Shown here in pieces: positions 11 through 46,018 of a stretch of DNA of 64,000 bases. The DNA is taken from NCBI GenBank assembly GCA_016715865.1, contig JADJXM010000006.1, positions 257,564 through 321,563 on the forward strand. The letters run 5' to 3'. The position numbers and the translations under genes were made by a program. The notes under the pieces were generated by a model. That model ran no database searches and was not told the origin of the DNA. It saw only the letters and a program-made list of their open reading frames with translations. Position 1 is the stretch's first letter, and each line of letters begins with the position of its first letter. This stretch comes from Acidobacteriota bacterium (lineage in GTDB: Bacteria; Acidobacteriota; Blastocatellia; RBC074).

Positions 11-379
11 TTGAGCAAGGCCAATGAAGGCAAGCTGATCACCAAACCGGTAATATTCTCACGTGGCGTAACGACGCGCAGCGATCTTGAATACCTTGCA
101 ACCATGCCCGCAAGCGATGTCCGCAACTGGACTCAGGGTCGATACTATCTTGAAATTACGGCGCTCCCGCTCGATCAGAAACGTTCGCAGCTCTTCGTCT
201 CAGCGCATATTCAGGGGAGGATCCCGGATGCGGTGAGCGGCAACAAATGGATCGACGGCCAATCGAACGGCAGACTCGAAGACGAAGTGATCCGCGGACT
301 CGCCAGTAAACTGCTGGGAATCGATCTGGGCTTTAAGAAGGGCGGCAACCCCAAGAGAATTCTCAATTGTGAATATTGA
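11..379 (+). CDS. hypothetical protein (possibly 5'-truncated by window edge)
   Basis: Open frame from window start; no recognisable motif. Coding-like composition; ends just before next gene. Confidence 0.35.
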   Translation: MSKANEGKLITKPVIFSRGVTTRSDLEYLATMPASDVRNWTQGRYYLEITALPLDQKRSQLFVSAHIQGRIPDAVSGNKWIDGQSNGRLEDEVIRGLASKLLGIDLGFKKGGNPKRILNCEY

Positions 380-914
380 AGTGCAAGCTTTCAGTTGATA
401 TAAATGAATTAATGGTTCGCATCATATTTATTATGGCTTTGACTTTGCTGATCGCTCCGGCGGTATGGGCGCAGAGCGCCAGCGGTGCGCCGGTTCCCGT
501 CGAAGAGCAGAGCGAGGCGATGATCGACACCCTCAAGCGGATGCGGATCAAACGGGAAGAGAACGAGCATAAAAAACTGCTCGAAAAAGGCACTCAGATT
601 CTGGAAATCTCGGAAGAACTGGCCAGGAATTACGCACATCAGACCATCACCAGCCTTCCACGCGAAGTCGAGAAGAAACTCAAGGAGATAGAAAAGAACG
701 CTCGCCAGATTCGATCCGAATCGGGCGGCTCCAAAGACGAACCTCTGGAATCGCCCCCGGCAACGCTCGATGAGGCGATAAACCGGCTCGAAGAGACCTG
801 CCGTCACCTCAACGAAGACCTTTCCAAAACTTCCCGGCGCGTCGTCTCGGTCTCAGTCATCAACCATGCGATCGAGGTGATTGAAATCGTACGTGTGTTG
901 AAGGGATATATTAA

Positions 915-918
<4 letters not shown>
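376..918 (+). CDS. hypothetical secreted protein (signal peptide, charged coiled-coil-like body)
   Basis: N-terminal hydrophobic stretch MVRIIFIMALTLLIAPAVWAQ typical of a Sec signal peptide (true start probably the internal ATG ~412); remainder K/E-rich, no known domain recognised. Confidence 0.45.
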
Positions 919-1955
<1,037 letters not shown>

Positions 1956-2097
1956 GGATTCATTGCTGCTCCGGGCTCACTCTGAGCGCCTGCTTGACTG
2001 GCCAATACCCGTCACTTATAGTTAAAAGTTCGCAGGGAATGATTGCTGGAATCATTCCCTCACATCTGCTCACAAGTCAAAGAAGGGATGCAATAAA

Positions 2098-2526
2098 ATG
2101 GGTTTGGGAATGCCCGAAGTGGTTTTGATTCTGGTCATTGCGCTGATCGTATTCGGTCCACGCAAACTGCCCGAACTGGGAAAATCCCTGGGACAGGCGA
2201 TGTCCCAGTTTCGCAGGGCGTCTGATGATTTCAAGCGGACCTGGGAGCAGGAAGTCGAGATGGAGACGATTCGCAAGACCGATTCCATCAGCAGCACTTC
2301 GTCCACATACGAGGATCCGGGTTCGCCGGATTCATATTCTTATGACAACTACTCATCGGATTCGAACGACTACATCCGTGACAACACGTATGAAACCGAG
2401 AGTGATGTCGCAAGCGACACGGCTAAGTCACAGGAAACGACTGAAGCCAGCACTGAGACATCGACCGTCGCCGCCACACCTGCCGCCAATGCCACCCCTG
2501 CGCCCGAGAAGCAGCGCTGGATCTGA
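2098..2526 (+). CDS. tatA: twin-arginine translocase subunit TatA/E with long acidic/Ser-Thr-rich C-terminal tail
   Basis: N-terminus MGLGMPEVVLILVIALIVFGPRKLPELGKSLGQAMSQFRRA matches the TatA TM helix-hinge-amphipathic helix signature (FGP.KLP); directly upstream of tatC. Confidence 0.85.
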   Translation: MGLGMPEVVLILVIALIVFGPRKLPELGKSLGQAMSQFRRASDDFKRTWEQEVEMETIRKTDSISSTSSTYEDPGSPDSYSYDNYSSDSNDYIRDNTYETESDVASDTAKSQETTEASTETSTVAATPAANATPAPEKQRWI

Positions 2527-2548
2527 CAGGCAATGAGTAACCTTAATA

Positions 2549-3598
2549 ATGAGCACCGTGATTGAGCAGGACGACAACCTGCAAATGTCCTTTCTTGACC
2601 ACCTGGACGAATTGAGGCGAAGACTGATCAACTCGGTCGTCATCGTCGCAATCGCGTTCTCGATCTGCTTCGCATTTTCTGATTACATCTACCGGTTTCT
2701 CGCCGTGCCGGTCGTCCAGCAGCTTCAGAAAGAGCGTCGAACACAGCAGGCGGCTTCGGGAAATATCGACATAGCCAGGGTTAAGGAAGGTGAGACTGTC
2801 CAATACACCTTTACCCAGGAGACCGCGGTCAACGAGGTCAAAGTTCCTCTCGGGACCACGATTTCGGTCAAGCGTATAACCAAAGGCAAGGAATCGCTGC
2901 TGGTGCTGGCTTCACCATGGTCGGTGGGAAAAACGATTCTTCCGGCGGAAACCCCTTTGAACACTATTGTCACTGAGGGAAGTTCCCGGTTATTTTTCGA
3001 TGACGAGAATAACCGCCTGGTACTGCGGGGAGTGACGAGCGCCTTCATGATATACATTCGCGTCGCGCTCTATTCGGGCATTGCACTGGCGGTTCCGTTT
3101 CTCTTTTATCAGATCTGGGCCTTCATCTCGCCCGGCCTTTACAAACACGAAAAGAAGTACATCTTCCCGGTCCTGCTCATGGCGACGGTCTTCTTCTCGC
3201 TCGGAGCCGGTTTCGCATACAAGGTCGCCTTCCCGGCCGCCTGCGACTACCTGCTCGGCTGGGCTGAACAGGGAGGATTCCGCACGTTGCTCGACGCTGA
3301 GGACTACCTGGACCTGATCATCATGATCATGATCGGACTGGGAATCGTTTTTCAGATCCCGACCATCGCGTTTGTTCTGGGAAGAATAGGGTTGGTCACG
3401 CCGGGTTTGATGATCCGCGTCTGGCGGTATGCGGTGGTGGCTATCGCGATCATCGCAGCCGTGCTGACTCCGACACCGGATGCCTTCAATATGATGATGT
3501 TCGCCGCGCCTATGTTCGGTCTCTATTTTCTGAGCATCGGCATCGTCTGGGTCTTTGGCAAGCCTCGCAGGACCGATGCCGAAGTCGATAATGAATGA
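2549..3598 (+). CDS. tatC: twin-arginine translocase subunit TatC (with ~100 aa insertion in first periplasmic loop)
   Basis: Conserved TatC N-terminus (MSFLDHLDELRRRLI), six predicted TM segments, synteny with tatA; 349 aa vs typical ~250 aa. Confidence 0.85.
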   Translation: MSTVIEQDDNLQMSFLDHLDELRRRLINSVVIVAIAFSICFAFSDYIYRFLAVPVVQQLQKERRTQQAASGNIDIARVKEGETVQYTFTQETAVNEVKVPLGTTISVKRITKGKESLLVLASPWSVGKTILPAETPLNTIVTEGSSRLFFDDENNRLVLRGVTSAFMIYIRVALYSGIALAVPFLFYQIWAFISPGLYKHEKKYIFPVLLMATVFFSLGAGFAYKVAFPAACDYLLGWAEQGGFRTLLDAEDYLDLIIMIMIGLGIVFQIPTIAFVLGRIGLVTPGLMIRVWRYAVVAIAIIAAVLTPTPDAFNMMMFAAPMFGLYFLSIGIVWVFGKPRRTDAEVDNE

Positions 3599-3800
3599 GT
3601 AGTTTCCAGTAAGAAGAAGTTTCCAGTTTCCAGTTTCCAGTGAGAACACGCTATTTTTCATCTCACGGTTGCATATTTAACTCTTCTTCAGTTGAATACT
3701 ATCAACTGGAAACTTCTTCAGCTGGAAACTTCTTCAGCTGGAAACTTCTTCAGCTGGAAACTTCTTCCACTGGAAACTTCTTCCACTGGAAACTTCTTCT
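3599..3800. repeat. GTTTCCAG-family element (A1): inverted arms, right arm a 16-nt minisatellite (ctggaaacttcttcag x ~5.5)
   Basis: Left arm gaagaagtttccagtttccagtttccag at 3602-3641; right arm tandem 16-mers 3706-3798; fills entire tatC / TPR-gene intergenic space. Confidence 0.85.
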
Positions 3801-3802
3801 TA

Positions 3803-5206
<1,404 letters not shown>

Positions 5207-5269: not shown

Positions 5270-6181
5270 TCATTTCCCGGGGACTGCAGGCGCAACCACA
5301 TTGAGCGCCTGCGACAGAATATCGAACGTCATCGGCAGTCGGCCGACGACTTCTCCGTCAAGCTGGACGAGCGCGCCTGACTTTGAGTCGGCCTTCGCTT
5401 TACGCGTCCACTGATAGACCACGCCGGAGCTGAGAGTATGCCGTCCGGCAAGGCTCTGAAATGCATAATTCAAATAAGCTATACGGCTGCCGGTATTGAA
5501 CAGACAGATATCCAGTTTATCGTCATCGATGCGGGCCTCAGGCGTCAGCGTGAACCATACCGCATATCGTGATGCATTGCCGATCACCGCGAAAGTGCTC
5601 TCGTAGACATTTCCATTGAAATCGATCGAGAACGGCGTCTGGGGCAGTCGCGCCAGATAATCGACTCCGGCCAGCAGATAAGCTCCGACGCCTGTCCATT
5701 TTTTCAGTCGCGAATCGACTCCGCTGACGATCGTCGCATCCAGTCCGATTCCCGCCATCAATAAAAAGTAACGATGCCAGCCCGTTTCAGGTTTCATCGC
5801 GACGCCGACGCTGATTCGACGCGTTTCTCCACGGACGATCTTCTCTGCCAGTGCCCGCGGATTTGCCGGAACGCCGATCTCTTTTGAAAAGACATTGGCG
5901 GTTCCGCAAGGCCAGACGGCAAGATCTGTCCCGGTTCCGACCAGTGGCTGAACAGCCTCGTTGATCGTTCCGTCTCCGCCACAAACCAGAACCACATCGA
6001 CCCCATCACGCATGGCGGTTTCAGCCAGAGCCGTCGCATGACCCGGGTATTGTGTCGGAATCGACTCGACGGACACGCCCAGGTCGCTCAGAGCACGGAC
6101 GAGGGTCTGAACCTGACATCGAGATCGTTCCATCATCCCCGCCACCGGATTGTATATTAATGATACCCGCTTACACTCCAT
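5270..6181 (-). CDS. diacylglycerol kinase catalytic-domain lipid kinase (YegS/BmrU family)
   Basis: DAGK_cat signature: LIYNPVAG..., VLVCGGDGTINE, GTANVF motifs. Confidence 0.8.
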   Translation of the reverse strand: MECKRVSLIYNPVAGMMERSRCQVQTLVRALSDLGVSVESIPTQYPGHATALAETAMRDGVDVVLVCGGDGTINEAVQPLVGTGTDLAVWPCGTANVFSKEIGVPANPRALAEKIVRGETRRISVGVAMKPETGWHRYFLLMAGIGLDATIVSGVDSRLKKWTGVGAYLLAGVDYLARLPQTPFSIDFNGNVYESTFAVIGNASRYAVWFTLTPEARIDDDKLDICLFNTGSRIAYLNYAFQSLAGRHTLSSGVVYQWTRKAKADSKSGALVQLDGEVVGRLPMTFDILSQALNVVAPAVPGK

Positions 6182-6333
6182 ACGTTTTGTTCTCGTATAG
6201 CATATTGCAAAAACGGTGCCAACTCCAGAGACACAGCTAACCCCTTACATTCCAGCTATTTACATATAGCCGCTATTTAATATGAGAATGATTTTCCAGT
6301 CAGGTGGGGGGTTTAGACGACACTGCGGGAAGC

Positions 6334-7374
6334 CTACCTTATCAGATTCCTTGGAGTGCGGCCTGAGACGGCGTCGATGGCGTTTTCGACTGCCAGCATG
6401 GCCATGGCCGTCCGTGTTTCGCGGGTGGCGCTGCCTATGTGAGGAAGCAGGACAACATTCGTAAGGTCAAGCAGGCCCGGATGAACCGCCGGCTCGTTTT
6501 CAAAGACGTCAAGTCCGGCCCCGGCCAGGCGACCTGACCTGAGAGCGTCAGACAGAGCAGCCTCATCGACTATCGGGCCGCGCGCGGTATTAATAAGATA
6601 ACTGCCTGGCTTGATTCGAGAGAAGACATCGCGATCTATCAGGTGCTGAGTCGTCGCGGCCAGGGGGACGTGGAGACTGACAATATCGGCGTTCTCGATC
6701 AACTGATGAAATGTCGCCCGTCGAGCGGTTGCGCCATCGCTGCGAGAGCTTTGCATGAGGAATCCTGTCTGGGTTCTTGCGCTGGCCTGCTTTGCCAGCA
6801 TATGGGCGTTGTGCTGAGGATCGTCACGGTAGGCCACATCGTCGCGCCCGCAATATATAACGGACATGCCGAAACCATTGGCACGGCGCGCGACCGCTCG
6901 GCCTATGCGGCCGTATCCGATAATTCCCATAGTCTTGCCCGTCAGACCCATCCCGAGCATCATGTCCAGGTCCCATCCGGTGAATTTTCCGGCGCGTAAA
7001 AAGGCATCGGCCTCAACGACACGCCTGGTGACGGCAAGAATCAGGGCCCATGTCAGATCGGCCGTCGCATCCGTCAAAACGTCAGGTGTATTTGTGATAA
7101 AAATGCCTTGTTGCTGCGCACTCGTCACGTCGATATTGTTATAACCGACCGCCACATTGGCAATGACACGCAGCTTCGTGGCTGATTGAATCATTTCCCG
7201 ATCGATCGTATCCGTCAGCAGGCAGATCAGCCCGTCGGCGTCCTTCAGACCTTCTCGGAGCGATTCCCTCTGGAGCTGCCCACTGGTCACACCAACTCGA
7301 TAGTCGCAGACCTCGCCAAGACGATTCATGGCTGCTTCAGGCAGTTGTCGCGTTATGAAGATTTGAGGCCGCAT
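6334..7374 (-). CDS. D-isomer-specific 2-hydroxyacid dehydrogenase (glyoxylate/hydroxypyruvate reductase-like), with internal ~50 aa insertion
   Basis: NAD-binding GxGxxG (GIIGYGRIGRAVARR), catalytic-domain conservation (LLPHIGSAT), typical length plus insertion. Confidence 0.8.
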   Translation of the reverse strand: MRPQIFITRQLPEAAMNRLGEVCDYRVGVTSGQLQRESLREGLKDADGLICLLTDTIDREMIQSATKLRVIANVAVGYNNIDVTSAQQQGIFITNTPDVLTDATADLTWALILAVTRRVVEADAFLRAGKFTGWDLDMMLGMGLTGKTMGIIGYGRIGRAVARRANGFGMSVIYCGRDDVAYRDDPQHNAHMLAKQASARTQTGFLMQSSRSDGATARRATFHQLIENADIVSLHVPLAATTQHLIDRDVFSRIKPGSYLINTARGPIVDEAALSDALRSGRLAGAGLDVFENEPAVHPGLLDLTNVVLLPHIGSATRETRTAMAMLAVENAIDAVSGRTPRNLIR

Positions 7375-7439: not shown

Positions 7440-8345
7440 TTGCAGAAAAGATCAAAATCCAAGTCTGCTAAATGGATCTTTATGGAATATTCAATGGTCA
7501 GGACTTTCGATCATGCCGGTTATTATGAAACCCGCCTGATCCTGATGTTAATCACTCTTGGCATCGCCATCTATAAATATCGCTTCAAGGGCGATCGCCG
7601 ATTTCTGATCATATTCGCAAGCGGAGCATTGCTGTTGACCGTGACCGAATATCTCCTGCAACTCAATGGACTGAGGGGCGCGGGATACAACTTCTCGCTC
7701 TTCGGGATCGTCATTCGAGGAATACACGGGCCGATGCTGCAGGGGTTGCTTGAAGGTGGGTCGTGCGGTCTGATTGCCTTCTGGTTTGCCGATCAGCGTT
7801 CAGCGCAGGCGAAGCGCCGTGAATGGGTTCCGTTTGGTATCGTCTGCGTTATCGTGGTCGTCTTGTCGATTGTCGCGGGTTATGCAGCCCGACCGCATCC
7901 GGTCTCGTCATCAAGACAGATGTTTTCGACTGTCATGGTCTTTTATGCGACGACGATCATCTTCGTTTCGCTGGTCATCGCCTGGCGCAGGGATGCGATC
8001 AGCGATTTCGTCAATTTTTTTGGCGGGCTTCTATTGTATGCGCTGCTCAGCCTCGAACCTTTGCATATCCTCGGAGTCAGATTTATCGGGACGATAACTG
8101 ATTCTCAGGTTCATCCGGCTTCAGTGCCGATCCAGGCTGTCCTCATGCTGCTTTCACACGTCTATGAGATCGCCGGCGCAAGGCTCCATATTTTCATCAT
8201 ACCGGCGCTGTTGGGTCTGGTGGCGCTTCGGGAAAAGAAGGTCATGGAATCCGGAGAAAGATATTCAACCCAGCATTTGCTCGACCTGGCCCAGAGAGGC
8301 TGGCGCAGGCGATCGAAACCCTTCCAGAAAGAAAAATCTCCCTGA
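7440..8345 (+). CDS. hypothetical polytopic membrane protein
   Basis: Multiple hydrophobic TM segments; no recognisable family motif. Confidence 0.45.
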   Translation: MQKRSKSKSAKWIFMEYSMVRTFDHAGYYETRLILMLITLGIAIYKYRFKGDRRFLIIFASGALLLTVTEYLLQLNGLRGAGYNFSLFGIVIRGIHGPMLQGLLEGGSCGLIAFWFADQRSAQAKRREWVPFGIVCVIVVVLSIVAGYAARPHPVSSSRQMFSTVMVFYATTIIFVSLVIAWRRDAISDFVNFFGGLLLYALLSLEPLHILGVRFIGTITDSQVHPASVPIQAVLMLLSHVYEIAGARLHIFIIPALLGLVALREKKVMESGERYSTQHLLDLAQRGWRRRSKPFQKEKSP

Positions 8346-8349
8346 CTGC

Positions 8350-8495
8350 CGGTGAAGTTTCCAGCAGGAAGAAGTTTCCAGTCGCCTGCTACAGATTCGC
8401 AAATAGAAATAAGCGCGAGTTCTTTGGCAAGTATGAACCTGTTCCTGCCCGTAAAACTGGAAACTGGAAACTTCTTCCTGCTGGAAACTTTACCA
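8350..8495. repeat. GTTTCCAG-family inverted-repeat element (A2)
   Basis: gaagtttccagcaggaagaagtttccagt ... actggaaactggaaacttcttcctgctggaaactt, ~60-nt spacer. Confidence 0.8.
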
Positions 8496-8521
8496 GAGAC
8501 TGAGCGGTTGCAAAAAAAATA

Positions 8522-8556
8522 AACGGGAAATCATAAGCGACTTCCCGTTTTCATTG
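8522..8556 (+). terminator. rho-independent terminator-like hairpin
   Basis: aacgggaa-atcataagcgac-ttcccgtt followed by ttcattg; preceded by A-run (bidirectional potential). Confidence 0.5.
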
Positions 8557-8885
8557 TCTGTATTTTATATGTTTGATTGATTCAAATTTTGTTTTAGTCC
8601 GACTCTCGGCTACACATTGAGTTATTCCTGGAGGGGAAATAGCGGGTGATTTCATGGAAGGGACGTGTCAAGGAAGTTGCGGTCAATTAACGTATCAAGA
8701 GACGGGCCTCAATGTGTAGCTAGAGAGTAAACTGAGAACATTGAAAATATTCTCAAACTCGGATGTGGCGTTTAACCTTTACGGGCGCCACGAACAAAAT
8801 TTCAAATATCTATCCCAGCAAATACTGGCCCAGCAAATTCCGGCCTTGTCGTTTCCAGGATCTTCAGCGTCGCGTTTTGCGGTCA

Positions 8886-9092
8886 TTACCGGGCGCTGAA
8901 TTTCTCAAATGCCCAGCGCGTGTACTGCTCTACGGTTATATCCTGCATACCGATTGCTCGACTGACGCTGAATCCCAATAGAGTCAACATAAAAACCGTT
9001 GACGCACCGATCAAAGTGAGCAGTAACGAATATTCGACTACGCTTTGTCCTTCTTCTTCTTTTATGAACTCTATCAGTTTCTCTATCCACAT
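8886..9092 (-). CDS. flp: Flp/Fap family type IVb pilin (orphan)
   Basis: 68 aa; leader followed by G-x4-EY-hydrophobic core: EEGQSVVEYSLLLTLIGASTVF, the Flp prepilin processing/assembly signature. No tad/cpa genes nearby. Confidence 0.6.
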   Translation of the reverse strand: MWIEKLIEFIKEEEGQSVVEYSLLLTLIGASTVFMLTLLGFSVSRAIGMQDITVEQYTRWAFEKFSAR

Positions 9093-9325
9093 AACTGTTC
9101 CCCAGTCCTGATTCGGTACCGGGGGGGCGTACCGTTTATCGTTACTTCAGACACCTGTAGTAATAGCAATGTCCGTGCCAAAGCACGTCCCGGAGCTGGA
9201 CAACAGCCACAACCTATTTGTAATCAATGAAATAACGAAGCAGGAGCTGAGGTTTAGCAGGGCCTGGCGGCGACATATGACACTTGAAGTTTACAAGACA
9301 GTGTGGAAGTGTCGTCACATGTTGT

Positions 9326-9480
9326 CAACAATAGTTTCCAGTTTCCAGTTAGGAAGTTTCCAGTATTCTAGACTGTATAAGTTAATTCCATAGACATTGT
9401 TTCAATTGTGACTGATAACAAACACTAAAGAAGCGACTGGAAACTGGAAACTTCTCCACTGGAAACTTCCCCACGGGAAA
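9326..9480. repeat. GTTTCCAG-family inverted-repeat element (A3)
   Basis: agtttccagtttccagttaggaagtttccag ... ctggaaactggaaacttctccactggaaacttcc; right arm abuts stop of MBL-rhodanese gene. Confidence 0.8.
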
Positions 9481-10878
9481 CTAATTCCCCTCGCATGGAG
9501 TCCCCTCGACGGGATAGCCTGCATTAACCCAAGCGGCAGTTCCTCCAACGACATTGAAGAGATTCGAGAAACCCCGGCGGGCTAGAATGGAGGTTGCGAT
9601 GCTTGAGCGGTAACCGCCGGCGCAGATGATGGCAGTATCTTTTTCAGGATCGATAGCTGAAATCTCTTCGCCGACATGAGCCAGTGGAGCGTTGATGGCA
9701 GTCGGAGCGTGACCGGATTTATACTCACCTGGCTGGCGAACGTCTATGACCTGCAGGTCGGGGTTCTCCTCAAGCCTGTGTTTGAGCTCGTCGACGGAGA
9801 TCTGAGGGATGGTCTGGACAGGAAAACGGACTTTATTCCAGGCGTATATACCGCCAGAGAGATAGCCCTTGATGTTTTCGATGCCGACGCGCGCGAGACG
9901 GGTGATTGAACTGGTTATCTGTTCATCGTCCTCTGCGATAATGACGACAGGAGCATCCAGCTTGATCAGGGTTCCCGCCCATGAAGCGAACTGTCCTGTC
10001 AGCCCGATATTGAGTGAACCTGGTATGTGCCCCGCCCCGAAGGCGACTGGCTGACGAACATCAAGCACAGTGACCCCGTCTTCAATCAGATCCTGTACAT
10101 CAAGTAACGATAAGGCGGCCGGAGTTGGAAGGTCCTCCAGCAGCTTCGCGCCGCTTCGATTTATCTCGGCATCTTTTGAGAAATAGGCTGGAGCTTCCGG
10201 CAGGTCCGTCGTCATCATCCTGACGAATTCCTGCCGTGTCATCGGCTGAAGCGCGTAGTTAAAACGGCGCTGCTGGCCGATGGTCGACGAAGTCTCACTT
10301 GAGATGTTGCGCCCGCAGAGCGATCCGGCGCCGTGCGCGGGAAAAACTTCGACATCGTCGTCGAGCTTGAGCAGTCTATCGAGACTGTCGTAAAGCATCT
10401 CGGCCATCTGCTCTGAGGTATAGCCTTTCGAGCCTGCCAGATCAGGTCTGCCGACGTCGCCGATGAAGAGTGTGTCCCCGGTCAAAACCTTGAGGGGCCT
10501 GTCCGACACTTCCGTATCGACGACCAGAATCGAGATGCTCTCGGGCGTATGACCCGGCGTCTCCCAAAACCTGAGAAGGACTTTCCCGAGCTTTATCTCA
10601 TCACCATCCCGGACAGCGATGTGATTGAATTCAGCCCCGGCACGCTGCCCGAAGACGATCCTGGCGCCAGTCCGCTCCGCCAGTTCCATATGCCCGCTGA
10701 CGAAATCGGCATGCAGGTGAGTTTCGATCACATATTTGATCTTCAGGCCCTGCGAACCTGCATCGATAATGTACTGATCTACATCGCGCTGAGGATCGAC
10801 CACAGCGGCTTCACCATCGGAGCCGATCAGATACGATGCATGCGCCAGGCAACCGAGATAAAACTGTTTGAAGTACAT
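9481..10878 (-). CDS. MBL-fold metallo-hydrolase fused to tandem rhodanese domains (persulfide dioxygenase-sulfurtransferase, CstB/Blh-like)
   Basis: HxHxDH metal-binding motif (ETHLHADFVSGH) of the metallo-beta-lactamase fold; two C-terminal rhodanese modules with active-site Cys loop (CAGGYRS). Confidence 0.85.
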   Translation of the reverse strand: MYFKQFYLGCLAHASYLIGSDGEAAVVDPQRDVDQYIIDAGSQGLKIKYVIETHLHADFVSGHMELAERTGARIVFGQRAGAEFNHIAVRDGDEIKLGKVLLRFWETPGHTPESISILVVDTEVSDRPLKVLTGDTLFIGDVGRPDLAGSKGYTSEQMAEMLYDSLDRLLKLDDDVEVFPAHGAGSLCGRNISSETSSTIGQQRRFNYALQPMTRQEFVRMMTTDLPEAPAYFSKDAEINRSGAKLLEDLPTPAALSLLDVQDLIEDGVTVLDVRQPVAFGAGHIPGSLNIGLTGQFASWAGTLIKLDAPVVIIAEDDEQITSSITRLARVGIENIKGYLSGGIYAWNKVRFPVQTIPQISVDELKHRLEENPDLQVIDVRQPGEYKSGHAPTAINAPLAHVGEEISAIDPEKDTAIICAGGYRSSIATSILARRGFSNLFNVVGGTAAWVNAGYPVEGTPCEGN

Positions 10879-10892
10879 AAGTCCTCTCCAGG

Positions 10893-11962
<1,070 letters not shown>

Positions 11963-12109
11963 GCTTGTGACCAGAGCGGAAATGGCTGGCGGAGTTTGAA
12001 TCGAGAAGGCCGCAAAGGAGCGCGAAGAGAGATTCTGTCTCTTTGCGCTTCTTTGCGGCCTTAGCGATTTAGTTCTCGATCAGTGAAATCTGTTTTCGCA
12101 GCACCAGTC

Positions 12110-17487: not shown

Positions 17488-18961
<1,474 letters not shown>

Positions 18962-22433: not shown

Positions 22434-22440
22434 AAAAAAA

Positions 22441-22557
22441 AATGAAGGAGAATGTGGAGTGCGGCGGCCCGGCGCCGCTTTGGTATCCACTTTAAACAAA
22501 GTCAGAAGGTAGTACCAAAGCGGCGCCGGGCCGCCGCACTCCACATTCTCCTTCATT
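22441..22557. repeat. 45-bp perfect inverted repeat (hairpin with 27-nt loop) following ferredoxin-domain gene
   Basis: aatgaaggagaatgtggagtgcggcggcccggcgccgctttggta ... taccaaagcggcgccgggccgccgcactccacattctccttcatt; preceded by A9 run. Confidence 0.85.
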
Positions 22558-22656
22558 TTCAAGCCATGGTCTGAGCAGTTACCTTACCTTTCATATTTAA
22601 AGTCGGCGCGTGTTACAATTCCCCGGAATTTCCAAACATCTGAAGAGGAGCCCGGC

Positions 22657-24996: not shown

Positions 24997-26847
<1,851 letters not shown>

Positions 26848-26920
26848 AAATATTGCGGGCAACCATTTCTCCACGGGCGTCAATCTAAGCCCACGATCGA
26901 GCGGTCATAGGTGAGCAACC

Positions 26921-30880: not shown

Positions 30881-30913
30881 GTGAGTAAAAAGTAGAAAGT
30901 ATAAAGTATAAAG
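30879..30913. repeat. GTAGAAAG-family single arm (B4) immediately after CHAT gene stop
   Basis: tgagtgagtaaaaagtagaaagtataaagtataaag; shares the tgagta leader seen in B1/B2. Confidence 0.7.
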
Positions 30914-32370: not shown

Positions 32371-32374
32371 AAAC

Positions 32375-32455
32375 AGTTGAAAGTTGAAAGTCAGAAGATT
32401 TGATCTCTTTGAGTTTGATAATAATCTTCTGACTTTCAACTTTTAACTTTTAACC
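32375..32455. repeat. GTTGAAAG-family inverted-repeat hairpin (C1) between convergent genes
   Basis: cagttgaaagttgaaagtcagaagatt ... aatcttctgactttcaacttttaacttttaac. Confidence 0.8.
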
Positions 32456-37449: not shown

Positions 37450-37583
37450 GTAAGATCCTCCTGTTTGATGTTTGAAAAGTTCCGTGCACTAAAGTAGACG
37501 GCTAATTTCTTATCACCGCTCACGCGGTTGCGGACATTCACAAAGCTTCGAAAACCCTCAAAATCACACTGGCGGAACGGTGC

Positions 37584-37620
37584 TTTCCACTTTCCACTTT
37601 TTACTTTCTACTTTTTATTT
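37584..37620. repeat. GTAGAAAG-family single arm (B5) overlapping enoyl-CoA hydratase stop
   Basis: ctttccactttccactttttactttctactttttatttcc. Confidence 0.65.
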
Positions 37621-38397
37621 CCCCGTCCAGCATGGAGTACGCTTCTCCAGAAACGCTCCGATCCCCTCCTGGGCGTCGTCGGCCATGGCGTTGAGGCTCA
37701 TGACTTCTCTCGTGTAATCATAGGCTTTCGGCTGATCGAGATCGATTTGAGTGTAGAATGCCTGTTTTCCGATGCCGACAGTAAGCGGGCTGGCTTCGGC
37801 GATCTGGAGCGCAAGCCGCGTCGACTCTTCCCTGAGCGCTTCAGCCGGCACGGCGCGGTTGATCAATCCCCATTCGACGGCTGTCGCGGCGTCGATCGGA
37901 GATCCGGTGAGGAGCATTTCGAGCGCGCGCTTTCGACCGATAGCTCGCGTCAACGCAACCATCGGCGTACTGCAAAAGAGCCCGATGCGGACTCCGGGTG
38001 TGGCGAACCGGGCTGAATCGGCCGCAATCGCCAGATCACAGGTCGCGACAAGCTGGCATCCGGCGGCGGTCGCCATCCCCTGCACTTCAGCGATGACTGG
38101 TTGTGGAATCCGCTGGATCGTCATCATCAACTCGATGCAAACATCGAACAGATTCCGATAGTGACCGATCGACTCACCCCTCAATTCATTCAGATCATGA
38201 CCGGATGAAAAAACCGTTCCGGACGCGGCCAGGATAACGGCCCGCACATCACCTGACGACCCGATACGTTGCAGGATGTCATTGAGCTCCCGCATAAGCG
38301 CGAGCGATAGCGCATTGCGTCGATCAGGCCGGTTGAGGGTTATCCTCGTGATCGAAGCATCGTCATCGACTTTCAGATTTTCATAGTTCGATTGCAT
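37615..38397 (-). CDS. enoyl-CoA hydratase/isomerase (crotonase) family protein
   Basis: ITLNRPDRRNAL..., AVILAASGTVFSSGHDLNE oxyanion-hole region characteristic of crotonase fold. Confidence 0.8.
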   Translation of the reverse strand: MQSNYENLKVDDDASITRITLNRPDRRNALSLALMRELNDILQRIGSSGDVRAVILAASGTVFSSGHDLNELRGESIGHYRNLFDVCIELMMTIQRIPQPVIAEVQGMATAAGCQLVATCDLAIAADSARFATPGVRIGLFCSTPMVALTRAIGRKRALEMLLTGSPIDAATAVEWGLINRAVPAEALREESTRLALQIAEASPLTVGIGKQAFYTQIDLDQPKAYDYTREVMSLNAMADDAQEGIGAFLEKRTPCWTGK

Positions 38398-39476: not shown

Positions 39477-39507
39477 AGTTTTCAGGTAACTGTTACGAAG
39501 TGTGGTT

Positions 39508-39745
39508 AAACGCCAAGAACGCCAAGACAGCCAGGTATTCAACGCCAAGGACGCCAAGTTGGCCAAGAGATTAGATGAAGTGATGATTCGTTGTAATTTC
39601 CATTTCGCCAAAAGCACAATCAAATATGCTGATCACATTATTCTCATTTAAATCCCTTGGCCGACTTGGCGTCCTTGGCGTTGAATACCTGGCTGCCTTG
39701 GCGTCCTTGGCGTTTAAATTCTTTGCCGGCCTGGCGTCGCCGCGT
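39508..39745. repeat. GGCGTCCTTG-family inverted-repeat element (D1) with AT-rich ~90-nt spacer
   Basis: Left arm cgccaagaacgccaagacagccagg...aacgccaaggacgccaagttggccaag; right arm cttggccgacttggcgtccttggcgttg...gccttggcgtccttggcg...gcctggcgtcgccgcg. Confidence 0.8.
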
Positions 39746-41151: not shown

Positions 41152-41408
41152 AAGTCAGTTGAAAGTTGAAAGTTAAAAGTTGAAAGTCAGCGCCATTATT
41201 TTACCGGATTTATAGTGGAAAAATCATTTCTCATCGGAGCGTTCCGATAAGTCAGTTGAAAGTTGAAAGTCAGCACCGTTATTTTACCGGATTTATAATG
41301 GGAAAATCATTCCTGATCGGAGCCTTCCGATATTTGCCGATCACGAAGCGCCCAGCTTTCGACTTTCAACTTTCAACTTTCAACTTTTAACTTTTAACTT
41401 TTTACTCA
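41152..41408. repeat. GTTGAAAG-family composite element (C2): ~98-bp unit duplicated in tandem plus inverted terminal arm
   Basis: Two near-identical units beginning aagtcagttgaaagttgaaagt...cagc(g/a)cc(a/g)ttattttaccggatttata...; closing arm ctttcgactttcaactttcaactttcaacttttaacttttaac. Confidence 0.85.
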
Positions 41409-45817: not shown

Positions 45818-46018
45818 TTAGCCAAAGGCCATTAAGATGGGCAAGGATTTTAAGTCGCAAAGGGCCATTTAAATGAGAATAAGTGGGGATCAGCATATTT
45901 GATTGCGCTTTTGGCGAACTGGATATTACTGCGAAAACGATCACTTCTTATAATCTTTGGCCGACTTGGCGTCCTTGGCGTTTAACCCTTGGCAGTCTTG
46001 GCGTCCTTGGCGTTGAAA
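45818..46018. repeat. GGCGTCCTTG-family element (D2), degenerate left arm and intact right arm
   Basis: Right arm ctttggccgacttggcgtccttggcgtttaacccttggcagtcttggcgtccttggcgttg nearly identical to D1 right arm; upstream gccaaaggcc/gggcaagg/cgcaaagggcc degenerate copies. Confidence 0.7.

Follow-up and report, generated by a model that had tools for sequence, protein, structure and literature searches.

We analyzed a 64,000-nucleotide (nt) stretch of the genome of an Acidobacteriota bacterium (contig JADJXM010000006.1; hereafter, the window), and in particular its positions 8346-9480, which host a short gene for a Flp-like prepilin (flp), a structured RNA, and clusters of heptamer repeats. A preliminary description of this region had presented it as an orphan Flp pilin gene that is bracketed by two inverted-repeat elements (A2 and A3), accompanied by a further inverted-repeat pair and a terminator hairpin, and possibly brought in as a mobilized cassette. 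The features that it described are all present where it had placed them. More specifically, GTTTCCAG clusters at 8357-8488 and 9334-9466 form inverted arrays on either side of the flp block, and the 8346-9480 region is indeed mostly non-coding, with a 68-amino-acid (aa) open reading frame (ORF) as the sole credible one (the others are short, overlapping, and have no Pfam match). Our reading of these features is a different one: with a probability of about 70%, positions 8495-9332 form a self-contained, vertically inherited, minus-strand unit made up of a sigma-54 promoter, the Flp-like gene, and a structured RNA, and the arrays around it are stand-alone elements.

The Flp-like ORF (8886-9092, minus strand) encodes a 68-aa peptide with a 15-aa leader, the junction G|QSVVEY, a hydrophobic helix, and a conserved C-terminal tail (..TVEQYTRWAFEKF). 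Across 35 aligned sequences, G15, Q16, S17, E20, and Y21 are invariant, and LLLTLIGASTVFMLTLLGF comes next. These are the hallmarks of a prepilin-peptidase substrate (i.e., a G/XXXXEY motif after a short leader, then a hydrophobic helix, in a protein of 50-80 aa). Within the family, 33 of the 35 members match the Pfam Flp_Fap model, all of them under threshold (best E value, 2.3e-4), and the best Protein Data Bank (PDB) matches, Caulobacter PilA (8u1k, E = 0.2) and a Flp pilin (8u2b, E = 0.9), are weak and cover the helix only. We found at least 67 homologues in Acidobacteria and Blastocatellia, several of which are named Flp pilins by NCBI or JGI; when looked up as an exact protein, neither the window Flp nor P0001 had a record. 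The ORF is treated here as a divergent Flp-like prepilin that formally stays outside the Pfam family. In this subfamily, the flp gene is always solitary, with its own promoter and terminator, and never part of a tad/cpa operon. Indeed, no tad/cpa genes lie within 10 kb of flp in the related loci L001, L002, L005, L008, L009, and L032, and none were seen among the window ORFs scanned with Pfam or in the part that is syntenic with L008, in agreement with what had been noted for the segment itself. The label of an orphan Flp is true of the whole subfamily, beyond this one genome.

A sigma-54 (-24/-12) promoter, TGGCACGGACATTGCT, is located at 9165-9180 on the minus strand, 73 nt upstream of the flp ATG, and matches TGGCAC-N5-TTGC exactly. 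The promoter was found at the same place in every locus that carries the subfamily gene, i.e., in 18/18 genome loci and 19/19 metagenome loci (85-125 nt before the ORF across the 37 loci), and it is absent from the more distant Flp-like matches L058-L063. Farther upstream, an alignment of 21 lineages revealed conserved blocks at 9272-9332 (minus strand; about -95 to -165 from the promoter), which read TGTCAYCA-N-GTGGACA and ATCAYCA..TGTGGACA in most lineages and represent putative activator (enhancer) binding sites. A conserved A/T-rich block that could serve as a DNA-bending site (9209-9237, minus strand; about -40 to -70) lies between these sites and the promoter. Collectively, the upstream blocks, the A/T-rich block, and the promoter display the usual layout of an enhancer-dependent promoter. 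In L001, the divergent upstream neighbor of flp (150-3926, minus strand) encodes a 1258-aa protein with Y_Y_Y, sigma-54 activator, and HTH_8 domains; this protein is a candidate activator of the flp promoter and is not adjacent to flp in the window. A second exact match to TGGCAC-N5-TTGCA occurs in the window at 6206-6221 (minus strand), 25 nt upstream of a diacylglycerol (DAG) kinase-like ORF (5270-6181). Two matches per window at ≤1 mismatch are about what chance would give (1.9 expected).

The 5' leader, whose start we infer, spans 9093-9153 (minus strand) and contains a conserved hairpin (CGGTAC-GCCCCCC-GGTACCG) and a GGGGA ribosome-binding site. The flp leaders of most lineages (e.g., L017, L005, and L044) are conserved and carry the hairpins GUCGAAAGCGAC and ACGGUGCUCCCGGUACUGU, followed by UCACCUCA. 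The latter could pair with the GGGG(A/U) ribosome-binding site, and the window lineage has GCCCCCCC in a hairpin loop instead.

The 3' untranslated region (UTR) of flp is ~370 nt long, and alignment of the region after the stop codon uncovered a strongly conserved stretch of about 165-180 nt, all of whose elements are given here on the minus strand. It opens with a conserved A/U-rich motif, ATAGATATTTGAAATTT (8797-8813; ATATTTGAAATT as RNA), a candidate site at which the transcript may be processed. The motif is followed by hairpin P-1 (8765-8791, GTGGCG..CGCCAC), which was read from the lineage sequences and is kept even where its sequence is swapped wholesale between lineages, and by hairpin P0 (8734-8754, GAGAATAT..ATGTTCTC), in which five of the six pairs show compensatory changes and 92% of the cells are paired. 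The main stem, P1 (8603-8727, CTCTC-TA-GCTACACATTGAGG / CTCAATGTGTAGC-C-GAGAG), has ~20 bp. Its core is the perfect inverted repeat that had been reported as 14 bp long; the repeat is there, and the tool that we used gives 13 nt (8609-8621 / 8708-8720, 86 nt apart). P1 closes an 85-nt loop (8622-8706) that is C-rich and G-poor and contains the near-invariant parts GATACGTT, ATTGACCGCAAC(C/T)TCCTTGAC, and GTCC (as RNA, GAUACGUU, AUUGACCGCAAC(C/U)UCCUUGAC, and GUCC). The loop also carries a near-invariant, anti-Shine-Dalgarno-like ACCUCCUU, i.e., the octamer with which 16S rRNA usually ends. The predicted intrinsic terminator of the flp-RNA transcript, which is the hairpin recognized earlier, follows at 8521-8550 as a 13-bp stem and then ATTTTTTTTG. 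The window has one copy of the RNA. Between flp and this RNA, the 3' UTR also contains ~2.3 copies of a 15-nt tandem repeat, CCAGTATTTGCTGGG (8803-8845, minus strand), which in the close relative L002 (2090-2270) has expanded to many copies that are interrupted by a 100-N assembly gap.

Our data on 35 distinct sequences support this structure: 97.0% of the cells are paired, and 10 of the 21 pairs show compensatory changes (e.g., A-U in 18 and G-C in 16 sequences, or A-U in 26 and G-C in 9). None of 500 shuffles was as good, and slid controls were 24-53% paired. The mean pairwise identity of P0-P1 is 0.63, compared with 0.66 for the coding sequence (CDS) and 0.25 for the spacer between them. 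In a smaller alignment of 21 sequences, which likewise supports the structure, G-U cells on the flp strand exceed A-C cells (30 versus 6), with a near-invariant closing G-U in 17 of the 21, and the RNA therefore fits the flp strand only. Likewise, canonical terminators after the RNA were found on the flp strand in 17/39 distinct loci and on the other strand in only 3/39. L013 and L017 have a CTCTCGG and a T run just downstream of P1, and this CTCTCGG is an alternative pairing partner for the 3' strand of the P1 base (CCGAGAG), so that only one of the two, the P1 base or a terminator hairpin, can form at a time in these lineages. We also considered the conserved loop as a small ORF and rejected this, given a 1-nt indel between the close relatives L001 and L008, which marks the loop as non-coding, and the lack of a conserved start. 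A search of the whole window against Rfam 15 gave no match at gathering thresholds, and the 3' and 5' regions for which this search had been suggested had none at E values of up to 10 either, where only chance hairpin matches appeared (mainly array arms versus miRNA-precursor models). The earlier suspicion that the 3' region is structured is well founded: its inverted repeat is the stem of what is, judging from covariation, an undescribed structured RNA that is predicted class-wide in Blastocatellia-type Acidobacteria.

The RNA is closely linked to flp. A scan for the loop core in 185,579 species-representative genomes returned 22 loci, 19 of them acidobacterial (the other three are chance matches in other phyla), and in 18 of these 19, flp and its sigma-54 promoter lie upstream on the same strand. 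In the 19th (L021; DATEMY010000562.1, about 6250-6670), the leader and the whole flp ORF are deleted and the promoter is degraded (TGGCATAGACGTTGCG), but the RNA is intact and its score is among the best. A protein-based metagenome scan yielded 19 subfamily loci, 18 of them with enough downstream sequence, and the RNA is present in 16 of these 18 informative loci. The deep-branching, high-GC loci L048 and L057 have the promoter and the ORF without the RNA and run straight into the convergent gene. The orientation and distance of the RNA relative to flp are fixed across loci, and the RNA core had no match in viral contigs. The fixed strand and distance, the terminators, and L021, which has a promoter and the RNA but no ORF, indirectly favor a shared transcript, and the RNA may well have a function of its own. 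Our literature search on an acidobacterial link between Flp, sigma-54, and RNA found nothing relevant.

With regard to the gene neighborhood, the order metallo-beta-lactamase (MBL)-rhodanese, flp, 287-aa membrane protein, 2-hydroxyacid dehydrogenase, DAG kinase, tetratricopeptide repeat (TPR) protein, and TatC is shared with L008 and partly with L001 (Flp identity, 77-80%). Both relatives have only single GTTTCCAG copies and no GTTTCCAG arrays. The A2-flp-A3 layout, with differing unit numbers, was found in L002 (96% Flp identity) and in seven further assemblies (99%). The convergent downstream neighbor of flp in the window (7440-8345, plus strand) encodes a 301-aa multi-pass membrane protein, which is found beside flp in at least seven distinct lineages at 45-64% identity, has a conserved C terminus (RGWRRRSKPFQ), and had no Pfam, NCBIfam, or PDB match. 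In L048 and L057, a gene of this type lies only 27-40 nt after flp. The 301-aa protein may work together with the Flp-like peptide.

The GTTTCCAG heptamer occurs 23 times in the window, compared with 1.7 expected copies (0/100 shuffles reach 23), and 20 of the 23 copies fall within three clusters, A1 (3602-3793), A2 (8357-8488), and A3 (9334-9466). Each of these is a complete stand-alone element, in which two inverted AGTTTCC-unit arrays surround a unique centre, and the three centres are unrelated to one another. A3 (9333-9483, strandless) has units at 7- and 15-nt spacing, a unique 72-nt centre, and arms of 25 nt that are 88% complementary and 78-93 nt apart; it reaches into the MBL-rhodanese stop codon and adjoins the conserved blocks upstream of flp. 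A2 (8351-8494, strandless), with 32-nt arms that are 97% complementary and 80 nt apart, separates the flp terminator from the stop codon of the convergent 301-aa gene. A1 (3599-3800, strandless), with four units in its left array and six 16-nt units in its right one, fills the spacer between the convergent TatC and TPR genes, 4.5 kb from the flp brackets and outside the interval described previously. In the close assemblies that cover them, A3 (nine assemblies) is the same element with differing unit numbers, and both A3 and A2 (four assemblies) have the same centre orientation throughout, without inversion polymorphism. In L001 and L008, A3 is missing and a single ACTGGAAACT is left beside the upstream blocks; one GTTTCCAGCAGG remains at the place equivalent to A2 in L001, and the A1 site hosts AGTAGGC arrays in both. 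No promoter-like site was found in the A2 and A3 centres, and no sigma-70-like site in 8200-9600. The GTTTCCAG elements are not part of the flp unit, nor are they the ends of a cassette.

Given these data, we postulate the following course of events for the sigma-54-dependent unit. A signal-dependent activator would bind the upstream blocks at 9272-9332 and fire the promoter at 9165-9180, giving a single transcript that would comprise the leader, the 68-aa prepilin-like ORF, and the ~370-nt 3' UTR and end at the terminator at 8521-8550. The Flp-like peptide, if it is a pilin, would be processed by a TadV-type peptidase and assembled by Tad machinery encoded elsewhere in the genome. The sigma-54 signal that yields the peptide would also yield the RNA, which would act while still joined to the mRNA or once processed at the A/U-rich motif. 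The architecture of P1, a closed stem whose long, C-rich loop is invariant and single-stranded, suggests sequence-specific recognition, and the most likely task of such an RNA would be pairing with G-rich, Shine-Dalgarno-like sites or protein binding. A bolder and decidedly tentative proposal, which we hold to be possible rather than probable, joins two ideas. In the first, the RNA would be the main product of the locus and the founding member of a new class of sigma-54-controlled regulatory RNAs in Acidobacteria, whose loop (ACCUCCUU and its neighbors) would titrate Shine-Dalgarno-like sites or an RNA-binding protein, thereby coupling a surface or pilus signal to the translation of other genes. 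In the second, which is separate, the inverted AGTnnnn arrays would be an undescribed, cross-phylum, self-propagating or invertible intergenic element that is also present in prophage-like contigs of Poribacteria.

Several results weigh against the unit as we read it. The G-x4-EY motif (G15-QSVV-E20-Y21) that underlay the original Flp assignment holds, but the Pfam test that had been proposed for that assignment does not bear it out, since the window protein scores 14.4 bits against Flp_Fap (PF04964), under the gathering cut-off of 32.2; taken strictly, this result speaks against a Flp identity. An NCBIfam scan of the same protein gave no match. There is no tad gene in the window or beside any homologue, so that pilus assembly is hypothetical. 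Regarding the RNA, ACCUCCUU reads ACUUCCUU in this window, no helices are predicted inside the 85-nt P1 loop, and the only site in the window that is complementary to the conserved loop is the locus itself. A duplex between the flp leader and the 3' RNA was no better than shuffles in 34 lineages (z of about -1.8 to +2.9). Canonical terminators are present in just the 17 of 39 loci mentioned above, L048 and L057 indicate that the RNA is not obligatory for the gene, and L021 is a single contig of a metagenome-assembled genome and could be a misassembly. Moreover, co-transcription with flp, processing of the RNA, and its strand are deduced from sequence logic.

The chief alternative on the RNA is that the 3' structure acts purely in cis and does no more than determine how long the flp mRNA lasts, be it as a stabilizer, as a protector of the 3' end, or as a fold associated with the terminator. 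The structure does follow the stop codon and precede the terminator on one and the same strand, long stems such as those of repetitive extragenic palindromic (REP) elements and terminator hairpins block 3' exonucleases, the P1 base of L013 and L017 can form a terminator with the downstream CTCTCGG, and L048 and L057 live without the RNA. However, a stabilizer requires a stem and not 85 nt of near-invariant unpaired sequence, the conservation of the RNA equals that of the CDS, and L021 has kept the RNA after deletion of the ORF; weakened by the invariant loop and by L021, this explanation is one that we regard as doubtful, though conceivable. The conserved region might instead work as DNA (i.e., as a protein site or a cruciform) or as a G-rich plus-strand RNA with GGA motifs that resembles a CsrA-type sponge, and it is true that the plus strand, too, folds stably (-47.7 kcal/mol, z = -3.6) and has GGAGG and GGAAGG motifs. 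We consider this quite unlikely: the closing G-U (17/21) and the 30 G-U versus 6 A-C cells fit the flp strand only, terminators on the opposite strand are confined to 3/39 loci, and the plus side has no conserved promoter and a variable flank, while the orientation to flp is fixed. As for the ORF, a small membrane peptide (e.g., type I toxin-like) whose translation is controlled by a structured UTR would also be short and hydrophobic, fail the Pfam threshold, have no assembly genes nearby, and have a long structured UTR. The invariant G-x4-EY motif, best matches to Flp pilins, and the missing 5'-3' pairing signal make such a peptide exceedingly improbable, and it is pilin genes, not toxin genes, that typically have an enhancer and a sigma-54 promoter.

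Turning to the arrays, the repeated ACTGGAA units of A3 might bind a regulator or set DNA geometry, with unit changes that tune or phase-vary sigma-54 activation. A3 adjoins the conserved upstream blocks, its unit numbers vary among close strains, one ACTGGAAACT sits at the corresponding spot in L001 and L008, and arrays occur at this spot in 8 of the 21 aligned lineages. On the other hand, the same units build A1 and A2 with no promoter facing away from them, and the frequency of arrays at the spot is not clearly over the background of ~1 per 5-7 kb. In addition, the spot holds unrelated units (GGGGACAA, GGGGAAT, GGGTAGT, or GGTGAAGG) or none in other lineages, and therefore no conserved protein site is involved; we deem a role of A3 as a regulatory part of the flp enhancer unlikely. 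The idea of the preliminary description, that flp arrived here in a mobilized cassette ending in A2 and A3 or through a repeat-mediated insertion marked by them, draws on the two same-family elements that bracket the block and on the location of all three GTTTCCAG elements inside 6 kb, which suggests local spread. It had proposed synteny with relatives as the decisive comparison, and this comparison turns against it: flp has the same neighborhood in L008, and partly in L001, without any GTTTCCAG arrays, and the convergent 301-aa neighbor is shared in at least seven lineages at down to 45-51% identity. We also rejected a composite transposon, a miniature inverted-repeat transposable element, or another mobile cassette in that each bracket is a whole inverted pair with its own unique centre, no transposase or recombinase was found in the block, and no target duplication or other direct repeat was found at the outer edges. 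Furthermore, arrays of other units occur at the same spots elsewhere, the window has about a dozen arrays, and because such arrays are common in the window and in related loci, the position of flp between two of them is unremarkable. An insertion of this kind is very improbable; the flp block was not inserted.

The nearest relatives of the peptide among characterized proteins are the Flp/Fap pilins of Tad (type IVc) pili (PF04964; e.g., Caulobacter PilA and Aggregatibacter Flp1), with which it has in common a size of 60-70 aa, a short charged leader, the G/XXXXEY cleavage motif, and one hydrophobic helix. The usual motif of these pilins is G(A/V)TAIEYGLI, whereas the window family has GQSVVEYSLLL and a conserved polar tail (TVExYTxWAYEKF), scores under the Pfam cut-off, and has its gene standing alone outside a tad/cpa operon. 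Control of pilA by sigma-54 and PilR-type activators in Pseudomonas, Myxococcus, and Geobacter involves a -24/-12 promoter directly before the pilin gene and upstream TGTC/GACA half-sites. The likeness of the window locus to this arrangement is a lead only, with the gene for the candidate activator located beside flp in L001 but not beside it in the window. For the whole unit, the nearest documented analogy is the ccaF1-CcsR locus of Rhodobacter, in which the CcsR ("cuckoo") sRNAs are co-transcribed with ccaF1 and released by RNase E from the 3' UTR of its mRNA (PMC8034643). Both loci combine a small ORF, an alternative sigma factor, and a downstream structured RNA that has a C-rich, anti-Shine-Dalgarno-like sequence and an A/U-rich stretch ahead of it. 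CcsR, however, consists of four repeats with the motif in small hairpin loops, whereas the window has one RNA with CCUCC in a large loop that is closed by a 20-bp stem. The ORFs also differ (DUF1127 versus a Flp-like peptide), and there is no sequence or Rfam relation.

Heptamer arrays are widespread in these genomes. The window contains at least 12 arrays of 7-9-nt units (AGTAGAA, AGTTGAA, AGTATAA, CTTTCCA, and CGCCAAG), mostly as inverted pairs; those with units other than GTTTCCAG fill nine or more additional spacers, and many of the arrays abut or overlap a start or stop codon. These intergenic arrays are located at 918-1008, 10905-11009, 17489-17526, 30884-30913, 32372-32454, 37583-37622, 39506-39717, 41157-41406, and 45965-46013 (units AGTAGAA, AGTATAA, AGTTGAA, CTTTCCA, and AACGCCAAG), and most of them are inverted pairs around a 12-170-nt centre. 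The AGTAGAA element that separates the amidohydrolase gene from the MBL-rhodanese gene has a counterpart at the same place in L008. In 328 kb of related loci, a period of 7 was found in 45 of 99 arrays, and the genomic background density is ~1 array per 5-7 kb. Arrays of 7-9-nt units occur in most Blastocatellia-type loci and in 0/3 non-acidobacterial control loci. The spots that flank flp host unrelated units in other lineages (GGGGACAA, GGGGAAT, GGGTAGT, GGTGAAGG, and CGCCAAG), and one array element is present in L008 and absent from L001. Collectively, the arrays are found in spacers that border transcription units, and they evolve through slippage of their units; hairpins at transcription-unit ends and selfish spread are candidates for their role.

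Paired AGT-type arrays have a fixed polarity, 5'-(AGTnnnn)n, centre, (nnnnACT)n-3', and the mirror order was found neither in the Blastocatellia set nor in nine viral loci. The latter came from a scan of viral contigs for AGTTTCCAGTTTCCAGT, which revealed nine loci in the standard order (L066, L069, L073, L079, L086, L089, L091, L097, and L114), where GTTTCCAG-type inverted arrays are mixed with AGTGGCC, AGTAACC, and AGTCACC units. These loci include prophage-like regions, and on the prophage-like contigs with arrays, a capsid protein matches Candidatus Poribacteria; among GenBank phages, megablast found no match to a Poribacteria-like prophage locus. Among the acidobacterial loci, the spacer between TatC and TPR, which is equivalent to that of A1, is the site of a rearrangement: in L001 (11199-11387) and L008 (16683-16943), the AGTAGGC/GCCTACT arms and the polarity are alike, and the ~70-nt centre is inverted between these close relatives (score of 82 as reverse complement versus 16 direct). 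The A1 centre of the window shows a weak similarity to that of L008 (20/30), though the A1 arms are GTTTCCAG. The window also has long inverted repeats without tandem units, at 22439-22559 (47-nt perfect arms, 27 nt apart), 26769-26849 (30-nt perfect arms, 21 nt apart), and 11999-12069 (32-nt arms, 88% complementary, 7 nt apart); they lie directly after gene ends and are likely strong terminator or REP-like hairpins.

Among known repeats, the arrays resemble the short tandemly repeated repetitive (STRR) heptamers of Cyanobacteria, such as CCCCAGT and CAACAGT, and TAACTGA repeats, and they are STRR-like in being intergenic 7-nt tandem arrays of several unit families (AGTAGAA, AGTTGAA, AGTATAA, AGTTTCC, and others). 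They also share with these repeats array sizes of 2-7 copies, the presence of many families per genome, an AGT or ACT within the unit, and frequent contact with start or stop codons. TAACTGA heptamers have been described in Beggiatoaceae, Cyanobacteria, and Bacteroidetes, with one inverted case among 170 (PMC4679880). The STRR and TAACTGA arrays are described as direct and mostly upstream of start codons, whereas those of the present loci are typically inverted pairs with a fixed polarity and a 12-85-nt unique centre. With REP sequences, bacterial interspersed mosaic elements (BIMEs), and REP doublets (REPINs), our arrays have in common that they are short, intergenic, genome-specific, hairpin-capable inverted pairs with a less conserved spacer that are common after stop codons. 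REPs and REPINs are moved by REP-associated tyrosine transposases (RAYTs), whereas here the arms are non-palindromic tandem heptamers, the centres are unrelated, and the window has no RAYT gene. We rejected a REP/REPIN reading, given tandem-heptamer arms without an internal dyad and no Y1-transposase domain among the window ORFs scanned. The arrays resemble STRR/TAACTGA repeats and REP doublets, and fit neither definition in full. Invertons are comparable in that inverted repeats flank a short segment, and the TatC/TPR centre is inverted between L001 and L008; in contrast, A2 and A3 have a single centre orientation, no promoter-like site in their centres, and no invertase nearby. An inverton reading of A2 and A3 was rejected on these grounds, with no recombinase in the window. 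Our search of the library for literature on heptamer arrays in Acidobacteria found nothing relevant.

For the biology of these bacteria, our analysis means that paired short-repeat brackets are part of the genomic background and are not to be read as signs of mobility. The whole Flp-like subfamily lives apart from tad operons, and its members may be served in trans or may not be pilins in the first place. Although Acidobacteria abound in soil, RNA-based regulation in this phylum is almost unknown, and few phylum-specific structured RNAs have been described. The RNA reported here is well delimited, with a fixed sigma-54 promoter type, a fixed partner gene, and a natural variant that has lost the ORF, and its proposed role would therefore be testable in cultured Blastocatellia.

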